This document shows, piece by piece, positions 52,097-56,106 of a stretch of 64,000 nt of DNA. Source of the stretch: an uncultured Trueperaceae bacterium (lineage in GTDB: Bacteria > Deinococcota > Deinococci > Deinococcales > Trueperaceae); the NCBI GenBank assembly GCA_963727505.1, contig CAVSGP010000004.1, positions 608,001-672,000 on the forward strand, in the 5' to 3' direction. Below the pieces are notes generated by a model that saw nothing but the letters and a program-made list of their open reading frames with translations, was not told where the DNA came from and ran no database searches. Positions within the stretch are counted from its first letter, which is position 1. Each line of letters starts with the position of its first letter. The translations under genes were made by a program, and so were the position numbers.

Positions 52097-52176
52097 GGGT
52101 CGCGCTGCGCGGGGTCGCACTCGCGGGTCGCGCTCGGGGGTCGCACTCGCGGGTCGCACTCGGGGGTCGCGCTCGC
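52097..52176. repeat. 13-bp tandem repeat gggtcgcRctcgS x5, plus one degenerate copy
   Basis: Units start at 52112, 52125, 52138, 52151 and 52164. Confidence 0.88.
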
Positions 52177-52215
52177 GGGAGGGGCGCGGGGACCGATGCG
52201 CCAGAACCGATGCGC

Positions 52216-52447
52216 TAGAATGGACGCAGTGAGCACGGTACGAACCTCACCGGGCGCGGGCGGCGGTCTCCTCTGAGACCCGGCACGGTCACCTTGCTTT
52301 GGTCCCCCTTCGACAATCCTTGCCGGCCGGGCTCCGGCCGATCCTCGCCCGCCCTTGGCGGCGGCGAGCGGGCTCGTTCGCCGGAGCGCGCCTCACGCCA
52401 CGCCACCGAAGGCCCTAGGAACGCCCTCTCGGAAAGGAGCAGCCGCT
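52216..52447 (+). promoter_or_regulatory. hflX promoter (TAGAAT) and structured 5' leader with a candidate uORF at 52229-52276
   Basis: Several perfect or near-perfect hairpins with mutually exclusive pairings. Confidence 0.55.
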
Positions 52448-54151
52448 ATCGACAAGGTCCACGGTAAGCTCTCCGGCCTGAAGGTCGGACAGATCAAACG
52501 CCTGGGGAACCTGTACCGGCGTCGCGTCCCGCCCGACGCAGCCGTCACCAACGACCTGGCACGCGCGCTGACCGCGCTCAGCGCCGACATCGGCCGTCAG
52601 GTGAGCGTGTTGGTGGACCGGCGCGGGCGGGTGGTGACGGTGGCTGCCGGGGATGCGATCGACACACCCCTGCCTCCGCCCTCGGGGGAGGTCACGTCGC
52701 GCCTGTACGGGCTTCGACTCATCCACACCCACCTCAAGCCCGTCGGGCTCAGCGGCGACGACCTGACCACGCTCTTCCTGAACCGGCTGGACGCCGTGAT
52801 GGCGATCGAGGCGAAGAGCGACGGCCTGCCGGGGATTGCCCACATGGCGCAGGTGGCGCCCCCGACCAGCGAGCACGAGGACTGGATCCTCGACCCGCCC
52901 ATGACCGTCCCCGAGCTCGAGCGCATCGACTTCACCGAGCGTCTGCACGCTCTCGAGGAGGAGATGGCGCGACAGGTGCAGGCCCGCGAGGTCGCGCGCA
53001 GCAGTGCCGAACGTGCCGTGCTGGTGGGCCTGGAATCGGGCGAGGGCCTCATCGAGGCCGAGTCGCGCCTGGAGGAGCTGGCGGAGCTGGTTAGCAGCGC
53101 GGGCGGAACGGTGGCCTGGAGCAGCCTGCAGCAACGGAGCCACGCCGACCAGAAGACGCTGGTCGGCCGCGGCAAGCTCCATGAGCTGGTCTCCAAGGCC
53201 TACCACGAGGACGCCGACCTTATGGTCTTCGATCGCGAGCTCTCCCCTGCCCAGGCCCGTGAGATCGAGGGGCTCACCCACCTGAAGGTGTTGGATCGCA
53301 CCCAGGTGATCCTCGACATCTTCGCGCAGAACGCACGGGGCCGCGAGGCGCAGGTACAGGTCGAACTGGCGCAGCTCCAGTACCAGCTCCCGCGGCTCGC
53401 CGGTCGCGGCCGCACCATGAGCCGGCTCGGCGGTGGGATCGGCACGCGGGGCCCCGGCGAGACCAAGCTCGAGGTCGACCGGCGGCGCATCCGCGACCGC
53501 ATCGTCAGCCTCGAGAGCGCCGTCGACGAGATCAGCCAGCGCCGCACCGAGACGCGCAAGAGCCGCACCGAGGCCAGCACCCCGGTCGTCGCGCTGGTCG
53601 GGTACACCAACGCCGGCAAGTCGACGCTGTTCAACGCCCTGGCCAAGTCCGACGCCATCAGTCGCAACCGGCTCTTCGCCACCCTGCGGCCGACGACGCG
53701 CGAAGGCTGGCTCCCGGCACTCGGCGAGTGGGGCGGCAAGGTGCTCTACACCGACACGGTGGGGTTCATCCGCGATCTGCCCGAGGAACTGGTCAATGCC
53801 TTCCGGGCCACGCTGGAGGAGCTGCACGACGCTGATCTATTGCTGCACGTCGTCGACGCCGCATCACCCGGAGCGCCGGAGCGAGTGGACGCAGTCCAGC
53901 GCATCCTCGACGAGCTCGGGCTGAAGCCCCCTCGCCGCGTGGTGCTGAACAAGACCGATGCGGCGGATGCGGAGGTCTTGACGGGCCTGTTGCAACGCTT
54001 CGACGCCACCGGCGTCTCGGCGCGGACGGGCGAGGGGCTCGACGCGCTGAAGGCGTCCCTGGCGCGCGCGCTCGAGGGCGCACGTCACGTGCCGCTGCCC
54101 GACGACCCGGCGCAGGCCTACGGTTGGGCGTCGGCCCGCAACGGCGACTGA
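52448..54151 (+). CDS. hflX: GTPase HflX (long form), probable ATC start
   Basis: GYTNAGKST, LFATL, DTVGFI, NKTD and GPGETKLEVDRR; AAAGGAG RBS 8 nt before ATC. Confidence 0.93.
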   Translation: MDKVHGKLSGLKVGQIKRLGNLYRRRVPPDAAVTNDLARALTALSADIGRQVSVLVDRRGRVVTVAAGDAIDTPLPPPSGEVTSRLYGLRLIHTHLKPVGLSGDDLTTLFLNRLDAVMAIEAKSDGLPGIAHMAQVAPPTSEHEDWILDPPMTVPELERIDFTERLHALEEEMARQVQAREVARSSAERAVLVGLESGEGLIEAESRLEELAELVSSAGGTVAWSSLQQRSHADQKTLVGRGKLHELVSKAYHEDADLMVFDRELSPAQAREIEGLTHLKVLDRTQVILDIFAQNARGREAQVQVELAQLQYQLPRLAGRGRTMSRLGGGIGTRGPGETKLEVDRRRIRDRIVSLESAVDEISQRRTETRKSRTEASTPVVALVGYTNAGKSTLFNALAKSDAISRNRLFATLRPTTREGWLPALGEWGGKVLYTDTVGFIRDLPEELVNAFRATLEELHDADLLLHVVDAASPGAPERVDAVQRILDELGLKPPRRVVLNKTDAADAEVLTGLLQRFDATGVSARTGEGLDALKASLARALEGARHVPLPDDPAQAYGWASARNGD

Positions 54152-54219: not shown

Positions 54220-56106
54220 ATGGATGACGGCGACCTCCACGACCTTCAAGGGTTGAAGGACCTGCGTGGCTTCCTGGCATTCCTTGAACGCCGCGGCGAG
54301 TTGGTGCGCGTCCGCGAGAGCGTGTCCGCCGCCTTCGAGATCACCGAGATCGCCGACCGCGTCGTGAAGCGCGGAGGACCTGCCCTGCTGTTCGAGAACG
54401 TCGAGGGCAAGGACATTCCGGTCGCCATCAACCTATTCGGCACCCGCCAGCGCACCGCCTGGGCGCTGGGCGTGGCGTCGCTCGACGCCATCGCCGACCG
54501 CATCCGCGGCCTGCTCGACGTACGCCTGGGCGGTGGCCTGCTCGGGCTCATGTCGAACCTGCCCAAGCTGCGCGAGGTCGCGTCGCTCCCCGCCAAACGA
54601 GTGCGCAACGCGCCCGTGCATCAGGTGGTGTGGCAAGGCGATGAGGTGGACCTGGCGCGTCTGCCGGTGTTGACCTGCTGGCCCAACGACGGCGGCCCCT
54701 TCGTGACACTCCCGCTGGTGGTGACGCGCGATCCCCTGCGAGGCGACGTGAACGTGGGCATGTACCGGATGCAGGTCTTCGACCGGGCCACCACCGGCAT
54801 GCACTGGCAGCGTCACAAGACCGGCGCGCGCCACCTCGAGAGCGCCCGCCAGGCGGGCGAGCGGCTCGAGGTGGCGGTGGCGCTGGGGGGAGATCCGGCG
54901 CTCACCTATGCCGCCACGGCGCCGCTCCCAACGCTTCCCGGGCTCAACGAGTACGCACTCACCGGCTTCCTGCGGGGGCGTTCGCTCGAAGTGACGCCGG
55001 GTCTCACGGTCGATCTCGACGTACCCGCCCACGCCGAGTTCGTGATCGAGGGCTACGTGGACCCCGAGGAGCCCTGGCGGCCCGAAGGTCCCTTCGGCGA
55101 CCACACCGGCTTCTACACCTTGACCGACCTCTACCCGGCGTTTCACGTCACCGCCATCACGATGCGCCGCGATCCCATCTATCCGGCCACCATCGTGGGT
55201 CGCCCCCCCATGGAGGACGCCTACCTGATCGAGGCCAGCGAACGCATCTTCCTGGTGCCCGCCCAGGTGGTGATGCCCGAGCTCGTCGACTACCACATGC
55301 CGCCGGCCGGCATCGCGCACAACCTGGTGAACGTCCGCATCGACAAGCGCTACCCGGGGCAGGCCTACAAGGTGGCGAACGGCCTGCTGGGCCTCGGGCA
55401 GATGATGTTCGCCAAGGTCCTGCTGGTTTCGGACGACGACGTGGCCGTCACCGACACGCTGGCGTTCTGGCGCGCGGTGCTGGCGCGAGCGCTGCCCGGC
55501 CGGGACGAACAGTTCGCGCGTGGCCCGATCGACGTGCTGGACCACTCCAGCCGCTCCTGGAGCTTCGGCTCCAAACTGGTCATCGACGGCACGCGCAAGC
55601 ATCCGGAGGAAGGCGACGAGGTGGCCTGGACCCCGAACGAGGAGCGGCCGGCGAGCGCGCTGCCGCACCACGCCGAGATCGCGGGGCAGCACCAGCTCGC
55701 GGGGGGGTTCTGGTTCATCACCACCCGCAAGACCCGGGCCGACCAGGGGCGCCACCTGGGCGAGTGGGCTGCGCGCCAGCCGGCCTGCCGCGGCGTGCGG
55801 TTGATCGCCGTGCTCGACGACGAGACCGATCCCGCCGATTTCGACGACTGCATCTGGACGCTCCTGAACAACATCGATCCCGAGCGCGACGTGCAGGTGG
55901 TGGACAGCTTCGCGGGCGTGCCGGTGTACGTCATGGACGGCACACCCAAGCTCGCCGAGGAGGGATTCACGCGGCCCTGGCCCCAGAAGATCCGCATGTC
56001 CGACGACGTCAAGCGGCGCGTCGGCCCCATCGTGGATCGGCTCGATCTTCCCGCCGAACCCGCTCCGGGCGACGAGCGGGACGCCGCGCTCGAGCGCGAG
56101 GCCTGA
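54220..56106 (+). CDS. UbiD-family decarboxylase (menaquinone/futalosine-pathway type)
   Basis: EITEIADR, GMYRMQ, EGPFGDHTGFY and GRPPMED motifs. Confidence 0.88.
   Translation: MDDGDLHDLQGLKDLRGFLAFLERRGELVRVRESVSAAFEITEIADRVVKRGGPALLFENVEGKDIPVAINLFGTRQRTAWALGVASLDAIADRIRGLLDVRLGGGLLGLMSNLPKLREVASLPAKRVRNAPVHQVVWQGDEVDLARLPVLTCWPNDGGPFVTLPLVVTRDPLRGDVNVGMYRMQVFDRATTGMHWQRHKTGARHLESARQAGERLEVAVALGGDPALTYAATAPLPTLPGLNEYALTGFLRGRSLEVTPGLTVDLDVPAHAEFVIEGYVDPEEPWRPEGPFGDHTGFYTLTDLYPAFHVTAITMRRDPIYPATIVGRPPMEDAYLIEASERIFLVPAQVVMPELVDYHMPPAGIAHNLVNVRIDKRYPGQAYKVANGLLGLGQMMFAKVLLVSDDDVAVTDTLAFWRAVLARALPGRDEQFARGPIDVLDHSSRSWSFGSKLVIDGTRKHPEEGDEVAWTPNEERPASALPHHAEIAGQHQLAGGFWFITTRKTRADQGRHLGEWAARQPACRGVRLIAVLDDETDPADFDDCIWTLLNNIDPERDVQVVDSFAGVPVYVMDGTPKLAEEGFTRPWPQKIRMSDDVKRRVGPIVDRLDLPAEPAPGDERDAALEREA

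Follow-up and report, generated by a model that had tools for sequence, protein, structure and literature searches.

To our knowledge, few bacterial genes keep a non-AUG start codon, and across phyla infC, which encodes initiation factor IF3, is almost the only one. In infC, a near-cognate codon whose third base varies between A, C and U lies behind a strong Shine-Dalgarno sequence (SD), and the gene forms a proven closed loop on its product: at codons that are not AUG, GUG or UUG, IF3 renders initiation complexes unstable, and infC is autoregulated thereby (PMC5472188). A comparable arrangement has been described for the stress gene sigR of Streptomyces, whose conserved GTC start (32/34 in the genus) behind a strong SD is repressed by IF3 and keeps the gene low; stress-induced release could not be shown by its authors (PMC5472188). 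Other conserved weak starts aided by a strong SD are Staphylococcus aureus ccpN (AUA) and cvfC1 (AUU), which, with extended SDs, yield ~10% of AUG output in S. aureus (PMC13009471), and Escherichia coli pcnB (AUU), as cited in PMC2830850. Non-AUG, IF3-sensitive starts are already known in Deinococcus as well (dnaA, ATC; rpsL, CTG; infC, ATA), and these, together with Deide_03051, share codon class, phylum and mis-annotated starts with the gene described here (PMC2830850).

Here we analysed hflX of an uncultured Trueperaceae bacterium, located in a stretch of 64,000 nucleotides (the window), and found it to be, judging from its sequence and that of its relatives, a further and deeply conserved case. 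It differs from infC in being a putative downstream target of IF3, and several lineages have given hflX a canonical start and left that of infC near-cognate. Unlike sigR, which is genus-wide and tested (PMC5472188), the candidate case of hflX extends, by sequence comparison, over three phyla; and unlike hflX, ccpN and cvfC1 do not encode translation factors, with ccpN responding to the medium and cvfC1 not (PMC13009471). Among the published Deinococcus non-canonical starts, hflX is mentioned nowhere in the main text of PMC2830850, and among the titles that came up in a literature search outside the subscription journals, none dealt with a non-AUG start of hflX or with an HflX that has a JAB domain.

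The hflX start site and its product in the window

The first-pass annotation of the window had proposed that hflX initiates at AUC behind a strong SD, and not at the upstream TTG picked by a mechanical ORF caller. The relevant features are as follows.

52355..52357, + strand: TTG chosen by the mechanical ORF caller, not the start; without SD and not conserved
52433..52439, + strand: Shine-Dalgarno AAAGGAG, 8-nt spacer to the ATC; anti-SD duplex of -8.2 kcal/mol
52448..52450, + strand: ATC, almost certainly the hflX start codon, from sequence and comparison with relatives
52448..54151, + strand: hflX coding sequence, long form, 567 codons plus stop; TIGR03156 match
52529..52930, + strand: extra N-terminal domain with a JAB/MPN-like fold, H93-x-H95...S102-x2-D105, residues ~28-161 of an AlphaFold model

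The sequence shows the layout on which that proposal was based. The AAAGGAG can be read directly 8 nt before ATC-GAC-AAG-GTC-CAC-GGT, giving the N-terminus IDKVHGKLSGLK, and no canonical codon lies near this ribosome-binding site: the nearest in-frame stop lies 58 codons upstream of the ATC, the TTG at 52355 is the sole in-frame canonical codon in between (31 codons before the ATC), and the first ATG, GTG or TTG downstream is a GTG at codon 52 (52601). The TTG was rightly said to lack a ribosome-binding site, being preceded by a pyrimidine-rich stretch without SD, and neither G004, a relative with 97% identity, nor any of the seven remaining members of the genus has the codon at this position. 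The locus thereby combines a near-cognate codon at a conserved Met position, the lack of a usable canonical alternative and a strong SD, features expected of starts of the infC, pcnB and sigR type. In a metatranscriptome that contained 5% of the sequence words, the contigs were 85-95% alike and covered only coding sequence from 52495 on and not the start, and so gave no RNA evidence for it.

The product matched TIGR03156 with 421.5 bits (cut-off 216.75) over residues 189-541 and model positions 1-350 of 351, and scored 286 against the enterobacterial-type model NF008280, below its cut-off of 441. By TIGR03156, the protein is an HflX-type GTPase, and 70S splitting by the long form is a prediction. 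It shares the HflX N-domain and GTPase region (residues 189-541 here) with the canonical HflX of E. coli, which splits 70S ribosomes (PMC9067457), and differs from it by an N-terminal addition of ~185 residues whose model resembles JAB/MPN domains. The E. coli gene is reported to lie under a heat-shock promoter (PMC9067457).

The first 185 residues, whose inclusion depends on the ATC start, were modelled by AlphaFold with a pLDDT of 94.5. The best structural matches of the extra domain were JAMM1 (Z 6.8, rmsd 3.3, 107 residues aligned) and Rpn11 (Z 6.5); together with CSN5 and RadC they span Z 5.4-6.8, below the tool's guide value of Z 8, and deaminases follow close behind. Foldseek likewise placed CSN5/JAMM proteins at the top with none at E<=0.001, a Pfam search with the domain gave no match, and in the Atlas it matched only at 0.78-0.90, to HflX-linked clusters. 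JAMM proteins carry the metal motif H-x-H...S-x2-D, with seven residues between H and S and a catalytic Glu upstream. Here the gap is six residues, and the motif positions are conserved as H93 in 61/75, H95 in 63/75, S/T102 in 58/75 and D105 in 66/75. Position 51, the likely though putative equivalent of the JAMM Glu, is Q in 48/75 and E in 4/75. The domain thus resembles JAB/MPN domains in the model, with membership of that family a candidate assignment.

The start codon in Deinococcota and beyond

The codon aligned to the Ile of the window protein could be read in 179 of 190 Deinococcota genomes; left out were seven without an N-domain match, one 5'-truncated gene, two split genes and one unpublished genome. 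We took the window's own family (f1) as Trueperaceae-type from the NCBI names (Trueperaceae or Deinococcota) of close protein matches, and f2, f3 and f4 presumably correspond to Deinococcaceae, Marinithermaceae and Thermaceae, respectively. A near-cognate codon was present in 137 of the 179 genomes. It was ATH in 80/80 genomes of f1 (44 ATC, 29 ATA, 7 ATT) and 30/30 of f2 (18 ATA, 12 ATC), near-cognate in 17/17 of f5 (12 ACG, 4 ATC, 1 ATA) and ATH in 10/22 of f3, where the remaining 12 had ATG, all in one genus; f4 had no near-cognate codon in 30 genomes (16 GTG, 11 TTG, 3 ATG). All 179 codons were ATG or one base away from it. ACG is the probable start in the 12 f5 genomes (loci L018, L019, L020, L183, L184, L190 and L194-L199). 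The proposed AUC start is strongly supported by this comparison: the 5' alignment of relatives gave ATC, ATA or ATT, never ATG, throughout the family, which rules out a sequencing error in the window. Equally, the N-terminal motif M(E/D)K(V/I)xG, which the first-pass annotation had given for long-form HflX of this lineage, sits exactly at the site in relatives with TTG, GTG or ATG.

In 83 of the 137 near-cognate loci, the stretch from the upstream in-frame stop to the site contains no canonical codon, and 71 of these 83 have none in codons 2-10 either; no other start in these loci therefore yields the conserved N-terminus. ATA accounts for 51/125 ATH codons at the site versus 70/995 Ile codons in codons 2-170, and in f2 for 18/30 versus 0/174 internal Ile codons. 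Because ATA is frequent at the site yet rare inside the genes, the position does not behave like one that encodes Ile. In a tree built from the N-domain, the f1 and f2 genomes (110 tips) require no fewer than 26 exchanges between ATC, ATA and ATT and none to ATG, and midpoint-rooted parsimony reconstructs a near-cognate root with two changes to canonical. Judged by these codon patterns, the near-cognate codon is kept by selection against AUG and not by drift or error.

Beyond Deinococcota, the start was read from DNA by a rule under which any canonical codon within the interval considered wins over a near-cognate one. This rule left 27/30 Desulfobacterota loci near-cognate (26 ATH and one doubtful ACG) in a sample drawn evenly from the phylum to which a Syntrophales genome belongs, comprising the best 30 of 39 matches among 51 genomes. 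In an even sample of Acidobacteriota, in which 18 of 51 genomes matched, 10/18 loci were near-cognate. We also examined the best 80 of 555 named loci, a query-biased set grouped by record title that shares two genomes with the even samples: Blastocatellia-type loci were near-cognate in 25/30 cases, and Desulfobacterales-dominated loci in 4/50, with 46/50 canonical. One Fusobacterium record had ATG behind a strong SD. Of 123 aligned distant proteins, a sample that carries no taxonomy, 32 showed Ile plus an extension at the site and 33 Met, which hints at a wider spread of near-cognate starts. The weak hflX start is thus widespread and probably old, but has been lost several times: f4, genus g12 and the majority of Desulfobacterales loci no longer have it.

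As a positive control, infC was read as well: preceded by an SD, it starts at ATA in the window's own genome and at ATA or ATT in relatives, and in the lineages in which it was read it keeps ATT or ATA where hflX became canonical. We found no co-variation between the two starts: in g12, infC is ATT in all six loci parsed out of 11, and hflX is ATG. One f5 genome (G022, L202) has GTA in infC where relatives have ATA, and its SD spacer contains an ATG, two codons before the GTA. dnaA is ATC in an f2 genome, in agreement with the published Deinococcus start, and canonical in the other four of the five genomes read, the window's own included; conservation of the weak start thus runs deeper in hflX.

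Leader, uORF and SD-less relatives

Upstream of the SD, the following features were recorded.

52216..52221, + strand: predicted (probable) -10 hexamer TAGAAT of the hflX transcript, from genus conservation and spacing to the GTG
52229..52276, + strand: putative leaderless-type uORF with 15 codons from its GTG and a TGA stop; conserved in place and length
52311..52340, + strand: leader motif CGACAA with a small hairpin, from an alignment of nine genus members

The hexamer is kept in 9/9 members of the genus (eight TAGAAT, one TAGACT) and lies 7 nt from the GTG, inside the genome-wide peak of TAnnnT-to-ATG/GTG spacings at 5-7 nt (69, 153 and 140 occurrences, versus 6-20 at most other spacings). 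No -35 consensus was seen for this promoter, and a full sigma-70 scan found nothing. The uORF would occupy the 5' end of a 219-nt leader and ends 171 nt before the ATC. It is present in 9/9 genomes of the genus (g1), versus 0.3 expected from shuffles, and is 15 codons long in 8/9, in an alignment without indels and with a variable peptide. In genus g11 of f2, a leaderless-type ATG uORF, longer than that of the window's genus, occurs in 16/17 genomes (1.4 expected), and 15 of the 16 continue without a stop to 14 nt or less from the hflX start, against 8.2 expected; kin genomes are not independent in any of these counts. Elsewhere the uORF is weak (other f1, 24/71 versus 13 expected), near chance or absent (f3, 3/22; f4, 2/30; f5, 1/17). 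The consensus hairpin has seven pairs and little covariation among the nine genus members. For the leader, double changes were seen in 4/34 pairs, and as a whole it folded no more stably than shuffled sequences (z 0.72), so that neither a conserved leader structure nor SD sequestration is supported, and an Rfam search of the leader gave one chance-level match only (16.8 bits versus 48). In Deinococcus deserti, a transcription start was mapped 246 nt before the annotated GTG of hflX, with reads at that start far above those in the coding sequence and ~3-4 times higher hflX reads after irradiation (PMC4007540).

Around this region, positions 52097-52179, between hflX and a divergent gene, hold a tandem repeat of a 13-nt unit in 6.2 copies, and G004 has a different repeat in its place. 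Downstream of hflX, 54220-56106 encodes a UbiD-family decarboxylase of the menaquinone pathway (TIGR03701), preceded by TACCAT-6nt-ATG, a leaderless-type start.

An SD core lies within 20 nt of the site in 129/137 near-cognate Deinococcota loci. The eight without one are all f1 genomes (L116, L105, L098, L134, L130, L104, L110, L107) and fall in two separate clades, g32 plus g33 (support 0.997) and g46 (0.937). All eight have an extended -10 element, TGn-TAnnnT, 5-6 nt before the ATC or ATA; in seven, a long opposite-strand ORF either overlaps the start or comes within ~55 nt of its position, and in the eighth the contig ends 43 nt upstream. The -10 spacing, the lack of an SD and the lack of a same-strand upstream gene, which together mark leaderless genes, are found in these relatives and not in the window gene. 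If the 5' end lies where the box predicts, their hflX mRNAs would be leaderless and start at AUC or AUA. Published leaderless genes of D. deserti begin with ATG or GTG, plus three with TTG, and leaderless reporters in Caulobacter show a sharp drop with AUC or AUA (PMC8459731). The SD-less relatives are therefore candidates for natural leaderless AUC/AUA mRNAs, a kind not found in what those two surveys describe. In genus g13 of f4, a TAnnnT box precedes the hflX TTG by 9 nt in 11/11 (L022, L023, L061-L069, L076, L080), a spacing that would imply a leader of ~3 nt with a UUG start.

IF3 and other possible explanations for the near-cognate codon

What might such a codon be kept for? In E. coli, AUC, AUA and AUU give 1-2% of AUG output with an N-terminal Met (10.1101/063800), and assembly-defective 30S subunits bypass the IF3 check (PMC6868393). 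IF3 is also an anti-association factor that keeps split subunits apart, with HflX as an alternative splitter (PMC9067457). On established principles, fMet-tRNA reads AUC poorly, a strong SD keeps the 30S subunit in place and IF3 takes most of these complexes apart, which would hold HflX output to a small part of what an AUG would give. When proofreading slackens, owing to few IF3 molecules per free 30S or to defective 30S subunits, HflX synthesis would rise and supply a second subunit-splitting factor at a time when normal recycling and anti-association capacity are short. A further input may come, in the window's genus, from the putative leaderless uORF with which the leader begins. Given the tested precedents infC and sigR, the link to IF3 that the first-pass annotation had inferred is the most likely mechanism for the AUC start, and we lean towards the view that the codon serves as a sensor of IF3 control, being kept because HflX output then rises as proofreading slackens. 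The protein is made in D. deserti, where 12 peptides were reported, all beginning at ORF residue 151 or beyond and hence with no N-terminal peptide in the peptide table (PMC2830850), and in D. radiodurans it goes up after mitomycin C independently of IrrE (PMC8533742).

A fixed brake without sensing, in which AUC simply limits a factor that, once plentiful, would take apart ribosomes at work and presumably be toxic, is a considerable possibility; strong SD and weak codon would then form an evolutionary trap, as changing either alone would mis-set the protein level. A constitutive dosage limit of this sort predicts the same sequences as IF3 sensing. It would fit with lineages that have a canonical hflX start and thrive, and with S. 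aureus cvfC1, where AUU gives ~10% output and shows no effect of the medium (PMC13009471). An SD of <= -6 kcal/mol accompanies 123/137 near-cognate loci in Deinococcota and 62/66 in the outgroups, versus 0/15 and 5/50 ATG loci, as if low output were reached either way; however, neighbouring ORFs of the ATG loci have an SD in only 9/68 and 7/25 cases by crude start calls, and because they too mostly lack one, we put no weight on this contrast. Against a mere brake, the near-cognate codon persisted when the SD was lost on two occasions, and over three phyla it has switched between ATH and ACG, although weak promoters or weak SDs would cap output equally well. The canonical hflX starts in lineages whose infC stays ATT or ATA imply in turn that the link of hflX to IF3 is dispensable.

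Two further readings concern the leader and the reading frame. The uORF could be the actual switch, with ribosomes handed on from it to the AUC by re-initiation or scanning, or with stalling that opens the leader, and the weak codon mainly blocking independent initiation. The excess of leaderless-type uORFs in g1 and g11, the proximity of the g11 uORFs to the hflX start and the long D. deserti leader with its high reads speak for such a switch, yet it fits two genera only: the codon is kept just the same where the uORF is weak, near chance or absent, and in the window the uORF stops far upstream, with an unconserved peptide and an unsupported leader structure. We regard it as improbable. More improbable still is that the ATC is erroneous or encodes an Ile within the protein, with the gene starting at TTG 52355 or at a downstream GTG. 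Gene callers do choose such starts, and the D. deserti gene is annotated at a GTG that its coordinates would place at codon 4. Of 120 database relatives, 89 have an extended N-terminus and in 27 the motif is missing, in most of them because the protein is truncated; only four, all NCBI records, already start at the site with Met at that position, without comment. The upstream extensions, however, share no sequence and are interrupted by stops, codon 4 uses ordinary synonymous Val, Ile or Leu codons and is GTG in just 19/179 genomes, residues 4-48 form a strand and two helices in a confident model, and ACG, TTG, GTG and ATG occur in relatives at the very same site. Database N-termini would thus be wrong in 116 of the 120 relatives, which matters for cloning or tagging.

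Under the favoured IF3-sensing reading, the weak start would hold HflX at a low level and may couple its synthesis to IF3, which proofreads start codons; if true, a ribosome-splitting GTPase with a near-cognate start would connect initiation fidelity to ribosome rescue. A more sweeping version, which we offer as tentative and doubtful as a whole, holds that long-form (JAB-fused) hflX is a second ancient IF3-gauged gene after infC, its near-cognate start inherited across Deinococcota, Desulfobacterota and Acidobacteriota, acting as a back-up splitter when IF3 is short, with the codon itself mattering so much that two Trueperaceae-type clades retained AUC or AUA after loss of the whole leader and now make natural leaderless mRNAs beginning at that codon.

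A blind scan of the window's own genome placed hflX among few comparable genes, so that its layout exceeds what chance would give. Of 2654 codon-model genes, 142 had no canonical codon near the onset of coding signal, and 23 of these had an SD and a near-cognate codon; hflX ranked third among the 23, so ATH starts are rare in this genome, in a scan that has false negatives and missed infC. An ATC candidate in a peptidase S58 gene (L345:252-1160, - strand) was rejected, as it is not conserved in five relatives and G003 has ATG. A SAF-domain gene (L344:363-641, - strand) has an SD and ATA, with ATC in 2/2 genus relatives and hence ATH in 3/3 genus genomes. A MarR gene (L346:395-910, + strand) has an SD and ATC, as in G003 and G101, with ATH in 3/5 genomes read and ATG or TTG in the other two. 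As both genes seem to start at ATH, such starts are not confined to translation genes.
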